The notes under the pieces are model-generated. The model did not search any database and was not told the DNA's origin. It worked only from the letters and a program-made list of their open reading frames with translations. This document shows, in pieces, positions 6,690-43,392 of a DNA stretch of 64,000 bases (within the stretch, counting starts at the first letter, position 1; every line of letters begins with the position of its first letter). A program made the position numbers and the translations under genes. This stretch comes from Escherichia virus TH57. The DNA lies in the sequence record MT446422.1; one strand, written 5' to 3'.

Positions 6690-7247
6690 ATGAACGAAAT
6701 TAAATTAACCAAGAATAACTATGTAAATAATAAAGAGCTTTTGAAAGCTATTTCGGAGTGGAAACAGAAGCTGAATGCGAACACCGACCCGAACAAAATT
6801 ATTCGCCAGAACGATGTTATTGGTCTGGCGATTATGCTTATAGCCGAAGGTCTTAGCAAACGTTTCAACTTCTCCGGATATACCCAATCCTGGAAGCAAG
6901 AAATGATAGCAGACGGAATTGAGGCCGCAATAAAAGGTCTTCATAACTTCGACGAAACAAAATACGATAATCCACATGCTTACATAACAATGGCTTGCTT
7001 CAATGCTTTCGTTCAGCGTATCAAAAAAGAACGTAAAGAAATGGCAAAGAAATATAGCTACTTCGTCCATAACGTATATGATTCACGTGACGACGATATG
7101 GTGGCTCTGGCTGATGAAACATTTATCCAGGACATCTACGACAAAATGACACAGTACGAATCCTCTTTAGTTAAAGCGCCAGGGTCTGATAAGAGCGCCA
7201 AAGATAAAGAAGGTGATTTGGATTTTTTATATGGAACATCAATTTGA
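6690..7247 (+). CDS. 55: late-transcription sigma factor gp55
   Basis: 185 aa, the T4 gp55 size; sequence matches recalled T4 gp55 along its length. Confidence 0.9.
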
Positions 7248-7464
7248 TATTACCGATTTTTTAGATAAAATCGAGGAAGACTTTACTGCGCTCCCATATT
7301 TCATTAAACTTTATCTGCGAGACATAAAAGGTCTTCCAATTGATATCGACCCTTTAAACGTCCGGAATCTGGAATTTACTTCACCGGATAATAACGTTGA
7401 TTACCGTTATCATGTGGATAATGCTAATCTATATTTTACAATTGAGTTAACTCCCAAGGATTAA
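7231..7464 (+). CDS. hypothetical protein (77 aa)
   Basis: ORF overlapping the end of gene 55. Confidence 0.35.
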
Positions 7465-7465
7465 T

Positions 7466-7777
7466 ATGCAAGCTCCAGATATTTCTCAACTGACCGATAA
7501 GCAGATTGAAGAAGCACAGGAACGTCTCGAAGAAGCGAACGCACTCGAAGCGCAGAGTCAAGCAGCAAAGATTCTGAAAAAGAATGCTCGTGAAATTGCA
7601 CGACTGAATAAGCATGCTCAAGGGGCAGTGCTGGAAAACAATTTTGAAGCATACAAATATGCTTTAGTTAAACTGCGTGGAATTTACCGCCAACCAGTTA
7701 CGGAAGACCTGATTAAGTTGATGTGGGAAACTACTCGCAAACAAATTTGGGAAATCGTAAATGGCATTAGTAAATAA
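7466..7777 (+). CDS. hypothetical protein (103 aa)
   Basis: ORF, helical/charged composition. Confidence 0.45.
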   Translation: MQAPDISQLTDKQIEEAQERLEEANALEAQSQAAKILKKNAREIARLNKHAQGAVLENNFEAYKYALVKLRGIYRQPVTEDLIKLMWETTRKQIWEIVNGISK

Positions 7778-7964
7778 ACCTTTTAAACGGCTTCTTGTTG
7801 GAGCCGCTTTCAGACTTCGCTCATACGGTAATATCTGTATCAAGCAGACCGAAACCGAATATAAAATGGTTGGTCAGTATTCTGATGGTATTTTTCAGAT
7901 TGAGCCTGTGGCCAAGGTTTGGGTGGATTCACACCAACTTAAGAAATGGTGGCAACGATGGTAG
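7761..7964 (+). CDS. hypothetical protein (67 aa)
   Basis: ORF only. Confidence 0.3.
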   Translation: MALVNKPFKRLLVGAAFRLRSYGNICIKQTETEYKMVGQYSDGIFQIEPVAKVWVDSHQLKKWWQRW

Positions 7965-8054
7965 GATTTTATGAAAGCGGATGTAACGAAGACGAACATC
8001 CGGATTTTTAAGCTTATGAACGACGAATAAGAAAAAGTTTAAGAGGTTTTATGA

Positions 8055-8228
8055 ATGACGAATTCGACGGATTTTGATAAGATTAAATCTGGCAAAAATG
8101 AGATGATACTTCAATTTGAAGCCGCTCGTATTAAAGCAGAAAATGAAGGCACTATTACCCATAAGAAAATCAAGTTCAAGTCTAATCGCGAACCTCTGTA
8201 TGGTGTATTAATTGGAAAGGAAGCCTAG
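8055..8228 (+). CDS. hypothetical protein (57 aa)
   Basis: ATG 8055 preceded by AAGAGG RBS; below the ORF-track size cut-off. Confidence 0.3.
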   Translation: MTNSTDFDKIKSGKNEMILQFEAARIKAENEGTITHKKIKFKSNREPLYGVLIGKEA

Positions 8229-8240
8229 TGCTTCCTTTTT
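8219..8240 (+). terminator. rho-independent terminator
   Basis: GGAAGC ctagt GCTTCC followed by TTTTT. Confidence 0.5.
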
Positions 8241-8262
8241 GCTTTATATTCGGGATGATAAA
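8240..8262 (+). promoter_or_regulatory. candidate middle promoter
   Basis: TGCTTTA then about 11 nt then GATAAA; weak -10. Confidence 0.3.
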
Positions 8263-8284
8263 ATGAACCAACTGAGGAGAACAT

Positions 8285-8428
8285 ATGGAATTATTTTTAG
8301 GATATGTTGTGTTATTCATGGCATTCTACACATTCACACGAGCTTGTTGGATAGGATTCTTTTCTACTCCTGACGGGTTCATTTCAATAATTTTATTTTG
8401 CACTGCGATAACGGCGCTTGGCTTATGA
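8285..8428 (+). CDS. small membrane protein (47 aa)
   Basis: GAGGAG RBS 6 nt upstream; hydrophobic; stop overlaps gene 47 start. Confidence 0.3.
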   Translation: MELFLGYVVLFMAFYTFTRACWIGFFSTPDGFISIILFCTAITALGL

Positions 8429-9444
8429 AAATTTTAAATTTAGGTGATTGGCACTTGGGTGTCAAAGCTGACGACCCATGGGCTCAAAACATTCAACGTG
8501 ATGGTATTTTACAGGCGATTGCATATTCCAAAGCGAATGGAATTAAAGTTTGGATTCAATATGGTGATATTTTTGACGTCCGTAAGGCCGTAACGCATAA
8601 GACAATGGAATTCAGCCGCGAGATTATGGAACTCCTTCGTGAAGCAGGAATTACTATGCACACGATAGTCGGGAACCATGACATGAATCTGAAGAATAAG
8701 ATTCATCCTAATGCTATCACCGAACTCCTGAATAAGTATGACCATGTTAAAATCTACGACAAGCCAACGACTGTTGATTTTGACGGTTGTCAGATTGATA
8801 TGATTCCATGGATGTGTGACGAGAACGCGACTGACATTCATCAACACATCAAAACTTCTGGTGCCGAATATTGCATCGGTCACTGGGAATTAACCGGGTT
8901 TTATTTCTATAAAGGATTGAAATCCCACGGGCTTGAGCCTGATTTCCTTAAGAAGTACAAGCAAGTTTGGTCTGGGCACTTCCATACCATTTCAGAAGCT
9001 GCGAACGTTAAGTACATAGGAACGCCATGGACATTAACAGCAGGTGATGAGAATGACCCGCGCGGATTCTGGGAATTTGATACAGAAACCGAAGAGATGA
9101 AATTTATTCCGAATGAAACCACCTGGCATCGGAAGATTTTTTATCCAAACGAAACTATTAACTACGACGACTTCAAAGACTTATCAGTCCGTGTTATTGT
9201 AGAAAAAGTCGATAAAGACCTGACCAAGTTCGAATCTGAATTAGAAAAGCGTGTACATGAATTGCGTGTTGTCAATAAGGTTGATAACAGTGTTGATACG
9301 ACTGACTCCGAAGAAGAGTTAGACATAAAACGCTTAACTGATATGATGGCAGAATATATTGATGCATTACCTGACACCAATGAGAAAGAATCAAAAGCTC
9401 TTAAAGCATTGGCCAACAAATTATATCTTGAGGTGCAACCGTGA
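8425..9444 (+). CDS. 47: recombination endonuclease subunit gp47 (Mre11-like)
   Basis: Phosphoesterase motifs GDWHLG and GNHD; N-terminus MKILNLGDWHLGVKADD as recalled for T4 gp47; start taken at ATG 8425. Confidence 0.9.
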   Translation: MKILNLGDWHLGVKADDPWAQNIQRDGILQAIAYSKANGIKVWIQYGDIFDVRKAVTHKTMEFSREIMELLREAGITMHTIVGNHDMNLKNKIHPNAITELLNKYDHVKIYDKPTTVDFDGCQIDMIPWMCDENATDIHQHIKTSGAEYCIGHWELTGFYFYKGLKSHGLEPDFLKKYKQVWSGHFHTISEAANVKYIGTPWTLTAGDENDPRGFWEFDTETEEMKFIPNETTWHRKIFYPNETINYDDFKDLSVRVIVEKVDKDLTKFESELEKRVHELRVVNKVDNSVDTTDSEEELDIKRLTDMMAEYIDALPDTNEKESKALKALANKLYLEVQP

Positions 9445-19009: not shown

Positions 19010-20188
19010 ATGTCTATTGCAGATTTGAAATCCCGTTTGATTAAAGCTTCTACATCCAAAATGACTGCGACTCTTACTAAGTCCAAGTTTTTTAATGATA
19101 AAGATGTAGTTCGTACAAAAATCCCGATGCTGAACATTGCAATCAGCGGTGCACTAGATGGTGGTATGCAGTCAGGTTTGACTATTTTTGCTGGTCCGTC
19201 AAAACACTTTAAATCCAATATGGGTTTAACGATGGTCTCTGCATATATGAACAAATACCCCGAAGCAATCTGTTTGTTCTATGATTCAGAATTTGGTATC
19301 ACAGAAGCCTATCTGCGTGCAATGAAAGTAGACCCGGAGCGTGTTATCCACACACCAATCCAGTCGGTTGAACAATTGAAAGTTGATATGGTTAACCAGC
19401 TTGAAGCAATTGAGCGTGGTGAAAAAGTCATTATCTTTATTGACTCAATCGGTAACATGGCGTCAAAAAAAGAAACAGAAGATGCGATGAACGAAAAAGT
19501 CGTTGGCGATATGACTCGTGCTAAATCCCTGAAATCTCTGTTCCGTATTGTTACCCCATATTTTAGTATCAAGGATATTCCTTGTGTCGCGGTTAACCAT
19601 ACAATCGAGACGATTGAGATGTATAGCAAAACCGTTATGACCGGTGGTACAGGTGTTATGTATTCTGCGGACACCGTATTCATTATCGGCAAACGCCAGA
19701 TTAAAGAAACTGGTAAAGAACTTGAAGGTTTCCAATTTGTTCTGAATGCCGAAAAATCTCGTATGGTCAAAGAGAAAAGTAAATTCTTCATTGATGTAAA
19801 ATTCGATGGTGGTATTGACCCGTATTCTGGCCTGCTTGATATGGCAATGGAAATCGGATTTGTAGTGAAACCGAAAGTTGGTTGGTATAACCGTGAATAT
19901 CTTGATGTTGAGACCGGTGAAATGGTCCGCGAAGAAAAATCATGGCGTGCAAAAGATACTAACTGTACTGAATTCTGGGGCCCGTTGTTTAAGCACGAAC
20001 CTTTCCGTGACGCAATCAAACGCCATTACCAACTGGGTGCAATCGATAGCAATGCTGTTGTTGATGCCGAAGTTGATGCGCTTATTGCCTCCAAGGTTGA
20101 AAAATACTCTGCCCCTGAAGGTAAGGCAAAACCATCTGCGGCAGATATCGAAAACGATTTAGATATGATGGAAGACCTTGATGAATGA
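19010..20188 (+). CDS. uvsX: RecA-like recombinase UvsX
   Basis: 392 aa; Walker A GPSKHFKS; matches recalled T4 UvsX. Confidence 0.95.
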   Translation: MSIADLKSRLIKASTSKMTATLTKSKFFNDKDVVRTKIPMLNIAISGALDGGMQSGLTIFAGPSKHFKSNMGLTMVSAYMNKYPEAICLFYDSEFGITEAYLRAMKVDPERVIHTPIQSVEQLKVDMVNQLEAIERGEKVIIFIDSIGNMASKKETEDAMNEKVVGDMTRAKSLKSLFRIVTPYFSIKDIPCVAVNHTIETIEMYSKTVMTGGTGVMYSADTVFIIGKRQIKETGKELEGFQFVLNAEKSRMVKEKSKFFIDVKFDGGIDPYSGLLDMAMEIGFVVKPKVGWYNREYLDVETGEMVREEKSWRAKDTNCTEFWGPLFKHEPFRDAIKRHYQLGAIDSNAVVDAEVDALIASKVEKYSAPEGKAKPSAADIENDLDMMEDLDE

Positions 20189-26066: not shown

Positions 26067-26585
26067 ATGGCTCATTTTAATGAATGTTCACAACTGATTG
26101 CTGGTGTTGACAAAGCTGAAGAAGCTTATGACAATGCAATTATCGAAGGCACTGACCCGCTGCAGATTATGCTTGATATGCAGAAATCATTGCAGGTCCG
26201 TTTGGCTACTGAAAAACCAGAATACAACTCACATCCAGACGAATTGGCTACCGCCGGCGATGTTGTTGCATGGCTTCGTAACCAGAAAGATTATGTTGAT
26301 GATGAATTCCGTGAACTTCTAACTTCTCTCGGTGGTATGTCTAATGGCGAGAAAGCTGCATCTAGTGTATGGAAGCCTTGGAAAGCCCAACATGCTGAAT
26401 TCCGTAATCGTCGTATTGATGAGTTGTCTCCTGAAGACCAGCTCGAAATTAAATTTGAGATGATTGACATCCTGCACTTTGTTCTGAACATGTTCCATGG
26501 TCTTGGCCTGTCGGCAGAAGAAATCTTTAAATTGTATTACCTGAAAAATGCTGAAAACTTTGCTCGTCAAGACCGAGGTTATTAA
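26067..26585 (+). CDS. 56: gp56-like dCTP/dUTP pyrophosphatase (MazG-like all-alpha NTP pyrophosphatase)
   Basis: 172 aa from ATG 26067; acidic metal-binding helices (DDEFRELL, EIKFEMIDILHF); position between 61 and soc as in T4. Confidence 0.6.
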   Translation: MAHFNECSQLIAGVDKAEEAYDNAIIEGTDPLQIMLDMQKSLQVRLATEKPEYNSHPDELATAGDVVAWLRNQKDYVDDEFRELLTSLGGMSNGEKAASSVWKPWKAQHAEFRNRRIDELSPEDQLEIKFEMIDILHFVLNMFHGLGLSAEEIFKLYYLKNAENFARQDRGY

Positions 26586-33055: not shown

Positions 33056-33736
33056 ATTGATGCTATTATTGACTTTGAAACTCTAGGAAACGGCTCGAAG
33101 GGAGCCGTTATTGACCTGGCTCTGATTACATTCGAATCTGACCCTGCTATTGTGGAATCATTCGAAACTCTGGTTAATCGCGGCAAACGTATTAAGTTCA
33201 GCCTCGAATACCAAAAAGGTAAGCGGTTGTTCGACACAACAACCATGGGTTGGTGGAAAAAACAATCACCAGAAGCTCGTGTTAACCTGACTCCTTCTGC
33301 GCATGATGTTGATACTCTGACCGGTATCCAACAGGCGATTGACTATCTGAATGGCAATGGAATTAACAAATACGAAAGCCTTATGTGGTGCCGTGGAATG
33401 TCTTTTGACTTCCCGTTGTTTGTCGACCTTATCCGCGACCTACAGCGCAATGAGGGGATTCCTGAGCGTGAATTGAATACCTACGGTCTGGAGCCGGTTG
33501 TATTCTGGAATCAGCGAGATATCAGGACAGCCATCGAAGCCTTATCACTCGTCCGTAAGATGTGTGAAACCCCATTACCGAAAGGGACTTTAGATGGATT
33601 TGTGGCGCACGATTCGGTACATGACTGCGCGAAAGATATTTTGATGTTGAAGTACGCCCAACGCTATGCTCTTGGTTTGGATGAAGTTCCTTCCGAAGAA
33701 GATGCAGACCCGTTATCTTTACCGAAAAAACGATAA
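33053..33736 (+). CDS. dexA: exonuclease A DexA (DnaQ-like)
   Basis: 227 aa; exonuclease motif IDFETLG near N-terminus. Confidence 0.85.
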   Translation: MIDAIIDFETLGNGSKGAVIDLALITFESDPAIVESFETLVNRGKRIKFSLEYQKGKRLFDTTTMGWWKKQSPEARVNLTPSAHDVDTLTGIQQAIDYLNGNGINKYESLMWCRGMSFDFPLFVDLIRDLQRNEGIPERELNTYGLEPVVFWNQRDIRTAIEALSLVRKMCETPLPKGTLDGFVAHDSVHDCAKDILMLKYAQRYALGLDEVPSEEDADPLSLPKKR

Positions 33737-36196: not shown

Positions 36197-36457
36197 ATGA
36201 AATATATTAATCGTTCTATTGCCGCGCTGGTTTTGGCAGTTTCATTGACTGGTTGTACTGATGCAGATAATGCTGTTCGCGTATTAGATGCAAACGGCTA
36301 TGAGCAAATCCAAATCACCGGATATAACTGGTTTGGATGCTCTAAAGATGATTTCCAGCATACTGGTTTTACAGCAGTGGGTTCAACTGGTAAGAAAGTT
36401 GAAGGAACTGTTTGTTCTGGATTGTTGTTCAAGAATTCAACCATCCGATTTGAATAA
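36197..36457 (+). CDS. putative lipoprotein (86 aa)
   Basis: Signal peptide with lipobox LTGC; followed by hairpin terminator. Confidence 0.5.
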   Translation: MKYINRSIAALVLAVSLTGCTDADNAVRVLDANGYEQIQITGYNWFGCSKDDFQHTGFTAVGSTGKKVEGTVCSGLLFKNSTIRFE

Positions 36458-36474
36458 GGCCTTCGGGCCTTTTT
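36457..36474 (+). terminator. rho-independent terminator before gene 39
   Basis: AGGCC ttcg GGCCT followed by TTTTT. Confidence 0.55.
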
Positions 36475-36498
36475 GCTTTAAAATATGTGACTTATAAT
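36474..36498 (+). promoter_or_regulatory. candidate middle promoter (MotA box plus -10) for gene 39
   Basis: TGCTTTA then 12 nt then TATAAT directly after terminator. Confidence 0.45.
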
Positions 36499-36520: not shown

Positions 36521-38353
36521 ATGATGATTAATAATGAAATTAAAGTACTCTCGGACGTCGAGCATATCAAAAAACGTTCCGGGATGTATATTGGTTCCAG
36601 TTCAAATGAAGCGCATGAGCGATTCTTGTTTGGTGAATATAAGTCCGTAAGCTATGTTCCTGGTATTGTAAAACTGATTGATGAAATTATTGATAACTCT
36701 GTTGATGAAGCAATTCGCACCAGTTTTAAATTTGCCAATAAAATTGATGTCCAAATTAAAGATAATCAGATTTCGGTTTCTGATAATGGCCGTGGTATTC
36801 CACAGGCAATGGTTACAGACCAAAACGGTGAACAAATCCCTGGCCCTGTTGCAGCATGGACTATTCCAAAAGCAGGTGGCAACTTCGGCGATGATGCTGA
36901 ACGTAAAACTGGCGGGATGAATGGCGTCGGGTCTTCTCTGACCAATATTTTCTCCGTATTGTTCACCGGGATTACCGCTGATGGGGCGAACGAAATTACT
37001 GTTAACTGCTCCAACGGTATGGAAAACAAATGTTGGTCGACTAAGAAATCAAAGGGTAAAGGTACGACTGTTATATTTATTCCAGATTTTAGTCACTTTG
37101 AAGAAAATAGTCTGTCCCAGATTTATCTGGATATTACATTGGACCGTCTGCAGACTCTTGCTGTTGTTTATCCGGATATTCAGTTCACCTTTAATGGTAA
37201 AAAGGTTGATGGCAACTTCAAGAAGTTCTCCAAGCAATTCGGAACCGAAGTTGTTATTCAGGAAACTGATACAGTATCGATGGCCTTTACGACCAGCCCA
37301 GACGGTTTCCGTCAGTTGACTTATGTCAACAACATTCATACAAAGAATGGCGGACACCACGTTGAATGTGTTATGGATGATATCTGTGAACACCTTCAGC
37401 CGGCGATTAAGCGCAAATATAAAGGCATTGAGGTGACCAAGGCACGAGTTAAAGAATGTCTCACCATGCTTATGTTCATCCGCGATATGAGCAACATGCG
37501 ATTTGATTCCCAAACCAAGGAGCGATTGACTTCTCCGGCTGGTGAAATCCGAAATCACATTAAGATTGATGCTAAGAAAATCGCGCAAGCTATTCTGAAA
37601 AATGAACCGCTGATTATGCCGATTGTTGAAGCTGCATTAGCCCGTAAATTGGCTGCAGAGAAAGCAGCAGAGACTAAGGCAAATAAGAAAGCTTCAAAGG
37701 CCAAGGTACAAAAGCATATCAAGGCCAACGAATGGGGCAATGATAAGTTGGAAACGACTCTATTCCTGACCGAAGGGGATTCTGCAACTGGCCCATTTAT
37801 CAAGGTTCGCGACCGTGAATTGCAGGGTGCTTATCCATTACGGGGCAAGTTTAAAAACACATGGGGCCTGAAAGCTATTGACGTTATGAAGAACGCTGAA
37901 GCCTTTGATGTGTGTGCAATTACTGGATTAACGATTGGACAACCGGCCGAGAATATGAATTACCGAAACATTGCTATCATGACAGATGCGGATGTGGATG
38001 GTGTCGGTAGTATCTATCCATCGTTATTGGCGTTTTTCAGTAACTGGCCAGAGCTGTTCCATGAAGGACGAATTCGCTTTGTGAAAACTCCTGTTATTAT
38101 TGCGCAGCTCAAAGATAAACAAGAATGGTTCTATTCTCTTCCTGACTATGAAGAAGCTAAGGATAAACTTCCGAAGCACACCATCCGATACATCAAGGGA
38201 CTTGGTTCTCTGGAAGATGCCGAGTACAAACGCGTATTGCTCGAACCGGTATTCGAAGTTGTTCAATTGCCTGACAACTGGAAAGAACTGTTTGAAATGT
38301 TATTCGGTAAAGATTCCCAGCAGCGCAAAGATTGGATGAATGCGACGCTATAA
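36521..38353 (+). CDS. 39: DNA topoisomerase II large subunit (GyrB-like ATPase; genes 39 and 60 as one ORF)
   Basis: 610 aa continuous ORF; GHKL ATPase N-terminus and TOPRIM region; no internal stop or bypass. Confidence 0.9.
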   Translation: MMINNEIKVLSDVEHIKKRSGMYIGSSSNEAHERFLFGEYKSVSYVPGIVKLIDEIIDNSVDEAIRTSFKFANKIDVQIKDNQISVSDNGRGIPQAMVTDQNGEQIPGPVAAWTIPKAGGNFGDDAERKTGGMNGVGSSLTNIFSVLFTGITADGANEITVNCSNGMENKCWSTKKSKGKGTTVIFIPDFSHFEENSLSQIYLDITLDRLQTLAVVYPDIQFTFNGKKVDGNFKKFSKQFGTEVVIQETDTVSMAFTTSPDGFRQLTYVNNIHTKNGGHHVECVMDDICEHLQPAIKRKYKGIEVTKARVKECLTMLMFIRDMSNMRFDSQTKERLTSPAGEIRNHIKIDAKKIAQAILKNEPLIMPIVEAALARKLAAEKAAETKANKKASKAKVQKHIKANEWGNDKLETTLFLTEGDSATGPFIKVRDRELQGAYPLRGKFKNTWGLKAIDVMKNAEAFDVCAITGLTIGQPAENMNYRNIAIMTDADVDGVGSIYPSLLAFFSNWPELFHEGRIRFVKTPVIIAQLKDKQEWFYSLPDYEEAKDKLPKHTIRYIKGLGSLEDAEYKRVLLEPVFEVVQLPDNWKELFEMLFGKDSQQRKDWMNATL

Positions 38354-38356
38354 ATA
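38349..38356 (+). promoter_or_regulatory. late-promoter-like TATAAATA overlapping gene 39 stop
   Basis: Exact TATAAATA; 38 nt upstream of ORF 38394. Confidence 0.35.
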
Positions 38357-38393
38357 GATGTGGGAGAATATTCTCCCGCTACTAGGAGACAAT

Positions 38394-38546
38394 ATGACTA
38401 AATACTGGATTACACTCGCTACCGGTGAATATGGTTTTCTCTGGGCAGAGAAAAAGCCTTTGTTTGCAGAATTTGTAACAATCACGTGCGAAACCTGGGA
38501 AGGTGAAACTTTCATGGCGTATGGTCAAGTCTATAAAGTAGAATAA
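38394..38546 (+). CDS. hypothetical protein (50 aa)
   Basis: ATG with AGGAGA RBS; TATAAATA overlaps gene 39 stop 38 nt upstream. Confidence 0.35.
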   Translation: MTKYWITLATGEYGFLWAEKKPLFAEFVTITCETWEGETFMAYGQVYKVE

Positions 38547-38551
38547 AATTT

Positions 38552-38575
38552 GGTCTCCTTCGGGAGACCTTTTTA
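38552..38575 (+). terminator. rho-independent terminator
   Basis: GGTCTCC ttcg GGAGACC followed by TTTTT. Confidence 0.6.
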
Positions 38576-38578
38576 TTA

Positions 38579-38607
38579 TGTACAAGCCACAAAAATTGTG
38601 TTAAGAT
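38579..38607 (+). promoter_or_regulatory. early-type promoter (TGTACA, 17 nt, TAAGAT)
   Basis: Immediately after terminator hairpin; upstream of ORF 38625. Confidence 0.35.
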
Positions 38608-38624
38608 GTCTTTGAGGTGAAAAT

Positions 38625-38909
38625 ATGATTATGTCTGACGGAAGTTTAGTTAATCTGCAAAATGTTGCACGGTGTATTATGGAAGCAGGTCTAAGGAAGG
38701 TGCAGGGGCTCCCAGATAACGACAGGAAGCGAAGTTACTTGTTAGCTGTAAGAACAACAGCCATGAGCATTAAGGCTGGCCAGAAGGTCCCTGAGGAGCG
38801 AATTGAAGCACTCCTTGCATTGATATACCATGACCAAGAACATAAAGCTACCATGCGTAGTATGAGAAAAATATTACAGGAGATTGGAAATGACGAACTT
38901 CAAAGTTAA
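38625..38909 (+). CDS. hypothetical protein (94 aa)
   Basis: ORF after terminator and early-type promoter. Confidence 0.45.
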   Translation: MIMSDGSLVNLQNVARCIMEAGLRKVQGLPDNDRKRSYLLAVRTTAMSIKAGQKVPEERIEALLALIYHDQEHKATMRSMRKILQEIGNDELQS

Positions 38910-39093
38910 TATGGAACTGTTTGATAAGGCTATCCATAAAGAGTACCGTGTTATCCAACGATTTTTTGATATAAGAGAAGCTGAAGAGTTTAAAGAACGC
39001 TTCAAAGAAATCCGTATTAAAATAGCTTCTGACGCCGCAACAAAGGATGAACTTCTTGAAGTTGCAGAATTAATCAAACGTAACATAAAGTGA
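38884..39093 (+). CDS. hypothetical protein (69 aa)
   Basis: ORF immediately upstream of rIIA. Confidence 0.4.
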   Translation: MEMTNFKVNMELFDKAIHKEYRVIQRFFDIREAEEFKERFKEIRIKIASDAATKDELLEVAELIKRNIK

Positions 39094-39100
39094 GAAAAAC

Positions 39101-42815: not shown

Positions 42816-43392
42816 AACATGGGAGCATCTGAAAAAGATGCCCTCCTTTCTTTATACAAAGGAAGACTTAACACCTGAATCCCTACAAAAGATTGTAGAC
42901 ACGGCCAGGTATTCATTGCGTAAAGACCCAGGTCAAGACCGTGAGCAAGTCATGCAAAGATGTATGGTGGCTACAATGGCAGAACAAGCTATTGCTAAAT
43001 GGACCTCCGGCTTTTTATGCGGCGGTGATGAAGATTACGATAATCCTTATTCCTTTGCATTTGATGTAGTTTCGAAGGAAGGGGTAAGAATCGAAGTCAA
43101 GACCCACCAGTCTGGTTCCAAATGGATATCCGTGCATACTGGTAGTCAGGGCGATTATCCACATGGTTACGGGATTAATCTTGGTCCTTTTATGCAACAC
43201 AAGCTTGCTGACCTTATGATTATGTTTAATGTAAAAGAGACTATCAAAGGTTATAGATTTAAACCAAAATTCCTTGCTGGGCCTGGGGCTTTTGTTCCTG
43301 AGTCCGGTCTTGTGCAGAAGTCACAAGGGGATGGCTGGTACCTCCGTTCTTGTTCAGAAGAAAAATTCCCCTATCACCGGTTTACAAGCTGA
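42799..43392 (+). CDS. hypothetical protein (197 aa), possible PD-(D/E)xK nuclease at the denB position
   Basis: FDVV...RIEVKT resembles a D...ExK nuclease motif; occupies the post-rIIB slot where T4 has denB; speculative. Confidence 0.4.
   Translation: MIQKSKTWEHLKKMPSFLYTKEDLTPESLQKIVDTARYSLRKDPGQDREQVMQRCMVATMAEQAIAKWTSGFLCGGDEDYDNPYSFAFDVVSKEGVRIEVKTHQSGSKWISVHTGSQGDYPHGYGINLGPFMQHKLADLMIMFNVKETIKGYRFKPKFLAGPGAFVPESGLVQKSQGDGWYLRSCSEEKFPYHRFTS

Follow-up and report, generated by a model that had tools for sequence, protein, structure and literature searches.

A T4-type gene block without alpha-glucosyltransferase between genes 55 and 47 of Escherichia virus TH57

In phage T4 the gene for alpha-glucosyltransferase (a-gt) is located between genes 55 and 47. 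The same interval in Escherichia virus TH57 (MT446422.1) was described in the initial annotation as lacking this gene and holding only five ORFs of 46 to 103 aa, two of them membrane-like, together with a terminator and a MotA-box-type promoter, and this was taken as consistent with the absence of the glucosylation system. What occupies the site, and does the missing gene say that the DNA of the phage is unglycosylated? We have analyzed a stretch of 64 kb of a genome of about 170 kb (hereafter, the window) and have searched the complete genome of the related phage SP18 with T4, RB69 and JS98 queries. A tblastn search with T4 alpha-gt gave no match in the window at E<=0.01, and the interval indeed contains five small genes, the shortest being 47 aa rather than 46 (actual range 47–103 aa). 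The genes of the block are as follows.

6690–7247, + strand: gene 55, late sigma factor (80% identity to T4 gp55; phrog_234, E 4e-68)
7231–7464, + strand: a-gt.5 homologue, 77 aa, acidic and soluble (39% identity to T4 a-gt.5, E 7e-13)
7466–7777, + strand: a-gt.4 homologue, 103 aa, all-helical (43% identity to T4 a-gt.4)
7761–7964, + strand: a-gt.3 homologue, 67 aa, basic (42% identity to T4 a-gt.3, E 1e-13; phrog_1648, E 6e-29)
7946–8011, + strand: 21-aa ORF, MVATMVGFYESGCNEDEHPDF, detached N-terminus of a-gt.2 by comparison with T4 a-gt.2
8055–8228, + strand: a-gt.2 homologue, 57 aa (57% identity to T4 a-gt.2 residues 11–63)
8285–8428, + strand: 47.1 homologue, 47 aa, two hydrophobic segments (78% identity to T4 gp47.1, E 4e-26; phrog_6693, E 1e-30)
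8425–9444, + strand: gene 47, SbcD/Mre11-like nuclease subunit (72% identity to T4 gp47; Pfam Metallophos; phrog_100, E 2e-133)

The identities come from tblastn with the T4 proteins, apart from that of 47.1, which was obtained by BLASTP. All five interval ORFs matched PHROG families (E about 1e-29 to 4e-40), and three of them were Pfam DUFs above the gathering score: DUF5491 for a-gt.5 (48.1 bits, cut-off 27; phrog_1169, E 5e-29), DUF2654 for a-gt.4 (87.1 bits, cut-off 25) and DUF5486 for a-gt.2 (68.9 bits, cut-off 27; phrog_2140, E 9e-30). These three are placed in their families by the Pfam score together with the T4 synteny after gene 55, and a-gt.3 and 47.1 by homology together with the same position as in T4. 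The counterpart of 7231–7464 in SP18 is annotated as a-gt.5. The differences from SP18 and JS98 fell mostly at third codon positions in a-gt.4, a-gt.3, gp55 and gp47 (for a-gt.3 against SP18, 4, 0 and 13 at codon positions 1, 2 and 3); in a-gt.2 and 47.1 the differences were too few for codon positions to show purifying selection. The five interval ORFs are real genes.

The first part of the block is very compact. The start of a-gt.5 lies inside the end of gene 55 with a 17-nt overlap, as it does in T4, a-gt.4 begins after a gap of 1 nt, and a-gt.3 overlaps a-gt.4 by another 17 nt, a packing that suggests that gene 55 and the four a-gt.x genes would be expressed as one transcription unit. The a-gt.2 homologue has its own Shine-Dalgarno sequence (AAGAGG, 8041–8046). 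The spacer that separates it from a-gt.3 (7965–8054) is hypervariable, with 53% identity to SP18, which has 64 additional bases there. A sixth ORF, beyond the five described initially, sits in this spacer: the 21-aa frame at 7946–8011. The N-terminus of T4 a-gt.2 reads MVATVKDEHP..., and the TH57 frame ends after DEHPDF, so that, unlike in T4, this part of the protein is split off as a separate ORF. Only short, chance-like repeats were found between 6600 and 9500, and no Rfam family reached its gathering score over the whole window.

Of the two membrane-like products claimed, hydropathy upheld one. The 47.1 protein had a Kyte-Doolittle 19-residue maximum of 1.74 and a GRAVY of +1.46, while the other four were hydrophilic, and the second candidate was accordingly rejected. 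The stop codon of 47.1 overlaps the start of gene 47 (ATGA), and this one of the five would be a small membrane protein whose translation is coupled to that of gp47. A full-text literature search found no published function for a-gt.2, a-gt.3, a-gt.4, a-gt.5 or 47.1, and NCBIfam gave no match for any of the five proteins. Probably, they are non-essential early or middle accessory factors.

Could one of these small genes replace the missing transferase? HMM searches of the five ORFs returned phage DUF and PHROG families and, across Pfam, PHROG and NCBIfam, no transferase; the sequences of a-gt.4 and a-gt.5 matched PDB entries at chance level only. As a check on fold we modelled a-gt.4, the largest of them, with AlphaFold2. 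The model consisted of three helices (pLDDT 86) with no Rossmann-type fold, and the best match of a Foldseek search of the PDB with it had an E of 0.75, transferases not being among the results. A three-helix model without a fold match indicates that a-gt.4 is not a glycosyltransferase, and the glycosyltransferase fold that would have overturned the initial reading of the interval did not appear in this model or in the HMM searches. That the small ORFs, singly or jointly, constitute a new miniature or split glycosyltransferase standing in for alpha-gt has practically no credibility for us. Four of the five proteins have no known function, and we found nothing else in favor of such an enzyme. 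Against it, the beta- and alpha-glucosyltransferases of T4, at 351–400 aa, are far larger than these proteins of 47–103 aa, none of the five has a Pfam, NCBIfam or PDB sequence match to transferases, and the DNA of the related phage VR7 is unglycosylated. T4, RB27 and Mineola have all five genes beside alpha-gt, and therefore these are no substitute for it; in T4 they even stand in the same order, and cannot be fillers of the vacated place.

The terminator and the MotA-box-type promoter were both recovered, the latter as a sequence match, and they make up a single composite element between a-gt.2 and 47.1.

8214–8240, + strand: hairpin followed by a U-run, intrinsic-terminator-like, from a terminator scan and folding; first half of the PmSL module
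8237–8264, + strand: MotA-box middle-promoter-like site, from a pattern match; second half of the PmSL module

The hairpin folds with -13.2 kcal/mol (z = -3.4), none of 200 shuffles being as good, and has the a-gt.2 stop codon within its loop. Its stem is preserved through compensatory changes in JS98, RB69, T4 and Mineola, i.e., in four genera. Directly behind comes tttTGCTTTA (8237–8246, the box itself at 8240–8246), a 12-bp spacer and the -10 sequence TAAAAT (8259–8264). This combination of MotA box and -10 was found five times in the window against 1.7 expected, and both elements are unchanged across SP18, JS98 and RB69; a sigma-70 promoter scan found 9 sites, no more than the 10.3 expected from shuffles. 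The whole a-gt.2/47.1 spacer, 56 bp long, is 100% identical in SP18. By these features the element at 8214–8264 is predicted to have terminator and promoter activity. The hairpin would end the unit of gene 55 and the a-gt.x genes, and the MotA-box promoter would restart middle transcription into 47.1-47-46, which includes the recombination nuclease genes.

This arrangement is that of the PmSL elements described by Comeau 2014 (PMC4122927): a stem-loop, a TGCTT Mot box directly 3' and a -10 box 11–13 bp downstream. The resemblance to the PeSL/PmSL systems (Arbiol 2010, PMC2839356; Comeau 2014, PMC4122927) extends to the location, an intergenic site at which the presence of a cassette distinguishes related genomes, with two copies of the element flanking that cassette. 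The PmSLs of those papers are from vibriophage nt-1, and the a-gt site is unmentioned in Comeau 2014 (PMC4122927).

The comparison with other T4-like phages, which the initial annotation had proposed as a check, recovered the same block in T4, RB27, Mineola, RB69 and JS98. The gene order in T4 (NC_000866) is 55, a-gt.5,.4,.3,.2, mobB, a-gt, 47.1 and 47, with the same five genes as in the window in the same order, between the same flanks and with the same overlaps (17 nt for 55/a-gt.5 and 4 nt for 47.1/47), at 39–78% protein identity. What T4 has in addition is mobB and a-gt between a-gt.2 and 47.1, and a second hairpin plus MotA module. RB27 has the T4 order minus mobB, and Mineola, a Klebsiella Jiaodavirus, has 55, a-gt.5 to.2, a-gt, a terminator and 47. 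The block recurs, minus a-gt, in RB69 (Mosigvirus) and JS98 (Dhakavirus). The architecture of SP18, VR7 and JS98 is identical to that of the window, with the genes annotated a-gt.5 to a-gt.2; 47.1 is present in SP18 but unannotated in its RefSeq entry, and is annotated in JS98. By its identity of 96–98% the window belongs to the SP18/VR7 group of Gaprivervirus; over the 55–47 interval the identity was 96.7% to SP18 and 94.5% to VR7. Records that cover at least 80% of the 55–47 query in one piece numbered 57, from Gapriverviruses and Dhakaviruses. Homologues of alpha-gt were found in 657 phage records, mostly from Escherichia/Shigella and Klebsiella phages, and the matches that we sampled belonged without exception to coliphages of the Tequatrovirus type or to phages of Klebsiella/Raoultella, the Jiaodavirus Mineola being one of the latter. 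Taken together, we are highly confident that the block is the conserved T4-type set of a-gt.5 to.2, terminator/middle-promoter module, 47.1 and 47 in a Gaprivervirus phage.

The copy number of the module follows the presence of the gene. A hairpin with TGCTTTA and -10 is present on either side of a-gt in T4, in RB27 and in Mineola. Where a-gt is absent, namely in the window and in JS98 and RB69, there is a single hairpin and MotA module. This distribution is the pattern of a PmSL cassette insertion or deletion. Alpha-gt is a cassette of a single gene (accompanied in T4 by the homing endonuclease gene mobB), and its absence is no deletion from a region that differs in other ways. The cassette is located exactly at the module in Tequatrovirus and Jiaodavirus, between two copies of it, and in the window, Mosigvirus and Dhakavirus the site is vacant, with one copy. 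The gene was probably gained or lost by recombination between the two module copies, as in the mini-circle model for PeSL/PmSL. In T4 the two copies have only short exact stretches in common (GCTTCGGC and GCTTTATA), so that recombination between them is no more than plausible. The change may have been a loss or a gain of a-gt.

A deletion between two flanking modules is mechanistically easy, and the absence might therefore be thought a recent event confined to this isolate, such as an artefact of the laboratory or of assembly. We regard this as extremely improbable. The same arrangement is found in SP18, in all 32 Gaprivervirus records, in Dhakavirus and in Mosigvirus, tblastn detected no remnant of alpha-gt in the window, and the enzyme that forms its substrate is likewise missing throughout the lineage. 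The a-gt cassette is absent from the whole Gaprivervirus lineage.

The a-gt-less interval alone is not diagnostic of unglycosylated DNA, because RB69 and JS98 share it and yet carry an arabinosylation cassette. The DNA of RB69 is arabinosylated (PMC13326640), and in JS98 the base-modification cassette is elsewhere in the genome. The question is decided at two other loci, both of them inside the window and both empty.

17955–19010, + strand: empty slot between gene 43/imm and uvsX, by layout comparison with T4, RB69 and JS98
38354–39100, + strand: empty slot between gene 39 and rIIA, by tblastn with RB69p003

At imm-uvsX, T4 has gene 42 and beta-gt, and in RB69 and JS98 the place is taken by a cassette for base synthesis and arabinosylation. 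All that the window contains there is imm (18028–18267), a membrane ORF of ~47 aa and a 176-aa ORF similar to JS98 gp043 (18394–18924), about 4.4 kb of the JS98 sequence being absent by blastn, and the locus was compact in 32 of 32 Gaprivervirus records. RB69 carries its second arabinosyltransferase (RB69p003) between 39 and rIIA; only three small ORFs are found there in the window, which gave no tblastn match to RB69p003. By tblastn, T4 alpha-gt (E<=0.01), beta-gt and gp42, the dCMP hydroxymethylase, matched nothing in the window and nothing in the complete genome of SP18. Ten other ORFs of the window, among them the 176-aa one at the empty 42 slot, were scanned with Pfam, and no base-modifying enzyme was found. 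The absence of the glucosylation system is thus supported.

Could the DNA still be glycosylated by enzymes encoded elsewhere, as in RB69, with arabinose on 5-hydroxycytosine? RB69 and JS98 do combine the same interval with a cassette at imm-uvsX, and only 64 kb of the TH57 genome were visible to us. We nevertheless consider this very unlikely. Both alternative slots are in the window and empty, and of the RB69 and JS98 cassette proteins all except JS98 gp043 lack a homologue in the window and in the whole SP18 genome. In contrast to the RB69 system (PMC13326640), with which they have the a-gt-less interval in common, the window and SP18 have no 5hodCMP synthase (gp48), extra nucleotide kinase, arabinosyltransferases (gp46:47 and gp3) or UDP-arabinose genes. 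Furthermore, the DNA of VR7, a member of the genus, was found to be unglycosylated by restriction analysis, being cut by a glycosylation-sensitive enzyme, and its cytosines were reported to be modified (PMC6326788). The phage lacks every known T-even gene for hydroxylating and glycosylating bases, which argues that its DNA is unglycosylated, unless a glycosyltransferase of an unrecognised family is encoded outside the window.

Other parts of the T-even hydroxymethylcytosine (hmC) system have been kept, and both of the following are full length, while gene 42 and beta-gt are missing.

26067–26585, + strand: gene 56, dCTPase/dUTPase (69% identity to T4 gp56 over 171 aa; Pfam dUTPase_2)
42823–43344, + strand: denB, endonuclease IV homologue (47% identity to T4 DenB over 178 aa, E 3e-52)

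That Gaprivervirus lacks the hmC synthase has been published (PMC8056088, PMC12115623), and the retention of dCTPase, DenB and Alc without gene 42 is a paradox to which two papers have drawn attention. Which base, then, do these phages use? As sources of modification, a Dam or cytosine methyltransferase was discarded (no Dam homologue in the window or SP18, and no methyltransferase annotated in SP18), and so was another thymidylate synthase homologue hidden in SP18, where a profile of gp42, RB69 gp48 and JS98 gp039 matched td only.

The td gene is outside the window, about 5 kb past its end, and for TH57 what follows rests on its relatives. In all five Gapriverviruses checked (SP18, TH54, VR7, CJ20 and YenP8) td has Asp at the position of Asn177 of thymidylate synthase, where JS98, RB69, Tequatrovirus G4498, T4 (PDB 1tis) and E. 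coli have Asn. The change from Asn177 to Asp is a known switch of specificity from dUMP to dCMP (residue code in PMC8670742 and PMC13326640), and dCMP 5-methyltransferase activity belongs to thymidylate synthase N177D of E. coli, to N229D of L. casei and to the enzyme of phage XP12. Otherwise the active site is thymidylate-synthase-like, with the catalytic Cys146, the hydrophobic L143 and D169; the D169N signature is seen in JS98 gp039 and RB69 gp48 and not in SP18 td. By residue code, then, Cys146, Asp177 and a hydrophobic residue at 143 would make the td of these relatives a candidate dCMP 5-methyltransferase. Gaprivervirus td has also diverged faster than the td of other genera.

On these grounds we incline slightly to the reading that Gapriverviruses, TH57 included, may have dropped the hydroxylated-cytosine and sugar chemistry and replace dC with 5-methyl-dC by means of their own td. 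The empty state of all three glycosyltransferase slots would follow from the methyl group, which offers no hydroxyl for a sugar, and the reading would also explain why dCTPase, DenB and Alc are kept despite the missing gene 42, and why VR7 DNA behaves as modified and yet unglycosylated. Our literature search found no published link between Gaprivervirus td and 5-methyl-dC. Plain unmodified cytosine, with the retained dCTPase, DenB and Alc homologues having changed or lost their T4 roles, seems unlikely to us, though it deserves to be taken seriously: no dedicated dCMP-modifying enzyme is annotated, and the RefSeq name of gp56 is dUTPase. It is at odds with the reported modification of VR7 cytosines, with a full-length gp56 at 69% identity to the T4 dCTPase and an intact DenB, and with the dCMP-specificity Asp in td of all five Gapriverviruses.

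The interval itself is of little import: both the gene block and the genus are known, and earlier publications have described Gaprivervirus as lacking genes for glucosyltransferase and hmC synthase. However, the a-gt site is a clean example of a single-gene cassette bounded by duplicated terminator and middle-promoter modules, which supports modular exchange of the PeSL/PmSL type. The absence of glucosylation has moreover led to a concrete and cheap test of which base Gapriverviruses use, a property that influences how sensitive they are to restriction, BREX and type IV systems, and that bears on the assessment of these phages for therapy and on the risk of transduction (PMC12115623).

The stretch from gene 55 to gene 47 (6690-9444) matched 613 phage records, and the best matches were Gapriverviruses: TH54 (98.4% identity), vB_YenM_P8 (97.2%), RZ (97.0%), SP18 (96.7%) and VR7 (94.5%). 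The first 25 kb of the window gave the same lineage answer (TH54 97.6%, SP18 95.8%). Given these closest matches, and as no record was identical, the window represents a new isolate of Gaprivervirus, a known genus of T4-type coliphages.

The initial annotation had reported that the 55-47 interval lacks the alpha-glucosyltransferase gene (a-gt) of T4 and holds five small ORFs, and this was borne out. All five (77, 103, 67, 57 and 47 aa) are homologues of T4 genes and keep the T4 order:

6690-7247, gp55
following gp55, a-gt.5 homologue, 39% identity to T4, Pfam DUF5491
following a-gt.5, a-gt.4 homologue, 43% identity to T4, DUF2654
following a-gt.4, a-gt.3 homologue, 42% identity to T4
8055-8228, a-gt.2 homologue, 57% identity to T4, DUF5486
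8285-8428, 47.1 homologue, 78% identity to T4
8425-9444, gp47

The T4 order is 55, a-gt.5, a-gt.4, a-gt.3, a-gt.2, mobB, a-gt, 47.1, 47. Since every small ORF has its T4 counterpart in the same order, the window is the T4 interval minus a 2.1-kb segment containing mobB and a-gt; the small ORFs are not substitutes for a-gt. The same gene names are used in the annotations of SP18, VR7 and the Dhakavirus JS98. In SP18, 47.1 (NC_014595, about 33420-33560; 82% identical to T4 gp47.1) is unannotated in the RefSeq record, and the gene is missing from the Mosigvirus RB69. Substitutions are biased to the third codon position in a-gt.4, a-gt.3, 55 and 47, supporting that they are coding; in a-gt.2 and 47.1 the changes are too few for such a judgement. 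Two of the ORFs had been described as membrane-like, but hydropathy gives 47.1 alone as hydrophobic.

The spacer between a-gt.3 and a-gt.2 (7946-8054) is hypervariable, with 53% identity to SP18 and repeated GACGAA... and TTTAAGAGG units. It holds a 21-aa ORF (7946-8011) that starts MVAT and ends DEHPDF and is the detached N-terminus of a-gt.2, because T4 a-gt.2 starts MVATVKDEHP. The SP18 spacer contains an additional 64 bases and includes a 28-aa ORF with the same DEHPDF end. Automated annotation in several public records (PP693301, NC_070780, MW250787) gives these ORFs such names as “anti-restriction nuclease,” “hemolysin” or “head maturation protease,” the last of which probably derives from phrog_17354, a weak PHROG family of 62 positions that overlaps a-gt.2. 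From a-gt.3 to 47.1 (about 7740-8420) the window is 84–96% identical to JS98 at most positions, with the exception of the spacer at about 7920-8000, against 44–89% in the flanks (a-gt.5 about 50%, gp47 about 70%, gp55 about 83%). This mosaic identity suggests a recombinational exchange between Gaprivervirus and Dhakavirus.

The terminator and the MotA-box-type promoter that had been proposed for the interval were also found as sequence features. A hairpin at 8214-8240 (-13.2 kcal/mol, z = -3.4 by folding) ends in a U-run and is directly followed by tttTGCTTTA, a 12-bp spacer and TAAAAT, then by GAGGAG and the start codon of 47.1. The Mot box and -10 are unchanged in SP18, JS98 and RB69, and across relatives the stem pairing is kept despite sequence change (GGAAGC/GCTTCC, GGAGC/GCTCC, GGAACTC/GAGTTCC, GGGC/GCCC). 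The composite matches the elements that Comeau et al. 2014 (PMC4122927) described as “PmSL.” A second such module lies directly upstream of gene 39 (about 36455-36498; AAGGCCTTCGGGCCTTTT TGCTTTA ... TATAAT), and a strong hairpin is absent at the remaining three Mot-box matches of the window. T4 carries the module twice, after a-gt.2 and after a-gt. In RB27, a Tequatrovirus without mobB, only a-gt lies between the two modules, and this order recurs in the Klebsiella Jiaodavirus Mineola, where a hairpin and TGCT box stand on either side of a-gt. In contrast, RB69 and JS98, like the window, have a single module and no a-gt. Homologues of alpha-gt occur in 657 phage records, mostly of Escherichia/Shigella and Klebsiella phages; the matches sampled from them were all Tequatrovirus-type coliphages or Klebsiella/Raoultella phages. 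Recombination between the two modules would be the most economical route of a-gt loss or gain, in either direction, for which the mini-circle model of cassette exchange (PMC2839356, PMC4122927) provides a precedent.

By itself the 55-47 interval cannot tell whether glucosylation is absent: RB69 and JS98 have the same interval but hold a base-modification cassette elsewhere. RB69 DNA carries arabinosylated 5-hydroxycytosine, made via gp48, gp45, gp46:47, gp3 and gp50-55 (PMC13326640). JS98 has a homologous cassette between imm and uvsX; this slot also houses the base-synthase and arabinosylation cassette of RB69, and in T4 it has 42 and beta-gt. Both alternative slots fall within the window:

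17955-19010, gene 43-uvsX slot: only imm, a membrane ORF of ~47 aa and a 176-aa JS98-gp043-like ORF
38354-39100, gene 39-rIIA slot: three small ORFs (50, 94 and about 67 aa) and two hairpins

The 176-aa ORF had no Pfam match. About 4.4 kb of JS98 sequence is missing from the first slot, and the junction sits in an early-promoter -10 region resembling a hybrid of both JS98 promoters. The second has a late-promoter-like TATAAATA at 38349-38356 and no homologue of RB69p003 (arabinosyltransferase gp3), whose place it is in RB69. Neither the window nor the complete SP18 genome matched T4 gp42, alpha-gt or beta-gt, or the RB69 and JS98 cassette proteins, gp043 excepted. The compact imm-uvsX locus was present in 32/32 Gaprivervirus records. 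The predicted structure of a-gt.4, the largest interval ORF, consists of three helices and matched no solved fold. By restriction analysis, the DNA of VR7 has modified cytosines and is unglycosylated, and this phage is restricted by BREX in the same way as non-glucosylated T4 (PMC6326788). Taken together, the three slots without cassette genes, the absent homologues, the a-gt.4 model and the VR7 data support the initial suggestion that glucosylation is absent. This absence is already in the literature for the lineage, and the 55-47 feature is ordinary, already annotated in close relatives and in itself of low interest.

Gapriverviruses have been described as lacking a hydroxymethylcytosine (hmC) synthase but keeping dCTPase, DenA, DenB and Alc, and an unknown base has been suggested for them (both in PMC8056088 and PMC12115623). 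The window itself shows the same paradox: it lacks gene 42 but encodes a full-length gp56, the dCTPase (26067-26585), with 69% identity to its T4 counterpart, and a DenB (42823-43344) with 47%. No Dam methylase homologue was found between 56 and 61, its place in T4. In SP18, a profile search found no thymidylate synthase superfamily gene besides “td,” which lies about 5 kb past the window end:

NC_014595 144065-144925, minus strand, SP18 td, outside the window

Where ThyA of E. coli has Asn177, SP18 td has Asp (LGLPFDIGSYG); td of JS98, RB69, a Tequatrovirus and T4 (PDB 1tis) shares the Asn of E. coli (LGLPFNIASYA). Four further Gapriverviruses share Asp177 with SP18, making five in all: TH54, to which the window is most closely related, VR7, CJ20 and vB_YenM_P8. 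The td of CJ20 and vB_YenM_P8 is just 85% identical to that of SP18. Gaprivervirus td is 66–69% identical to td of the other three genera, which among themselves share 86–89%. An SP18 td megablast retrieved exactly 32 records, the identical set to those with the compact imm-uvsX locus. Position 177 is the dUMP-to-dCMP specificity switch, Leu143 favors a methyl over a hydroxymethyl product, and an Asn in place of Asp169 is the mark of 5-hydroxy-dCMP synthases (PMC8670742, PMC13326640). As Gaprivervirus td has Asp177, Leu143 and Asp169, we predict, with moderate confidence and from these residues, that it would be a dCMP methylase giving 5-methyl-dC DNA. No published link between the td change and 5-methyl-dC in Gaprivervirus was found in the literature searched, and this lead is the part of the analysis worth an experiment. 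No sugar could be attached to 5-methyl-dC because it has no hydroxyl, and such a base would fit both the VR7 restriction data and the kept dCTPase and DenB.
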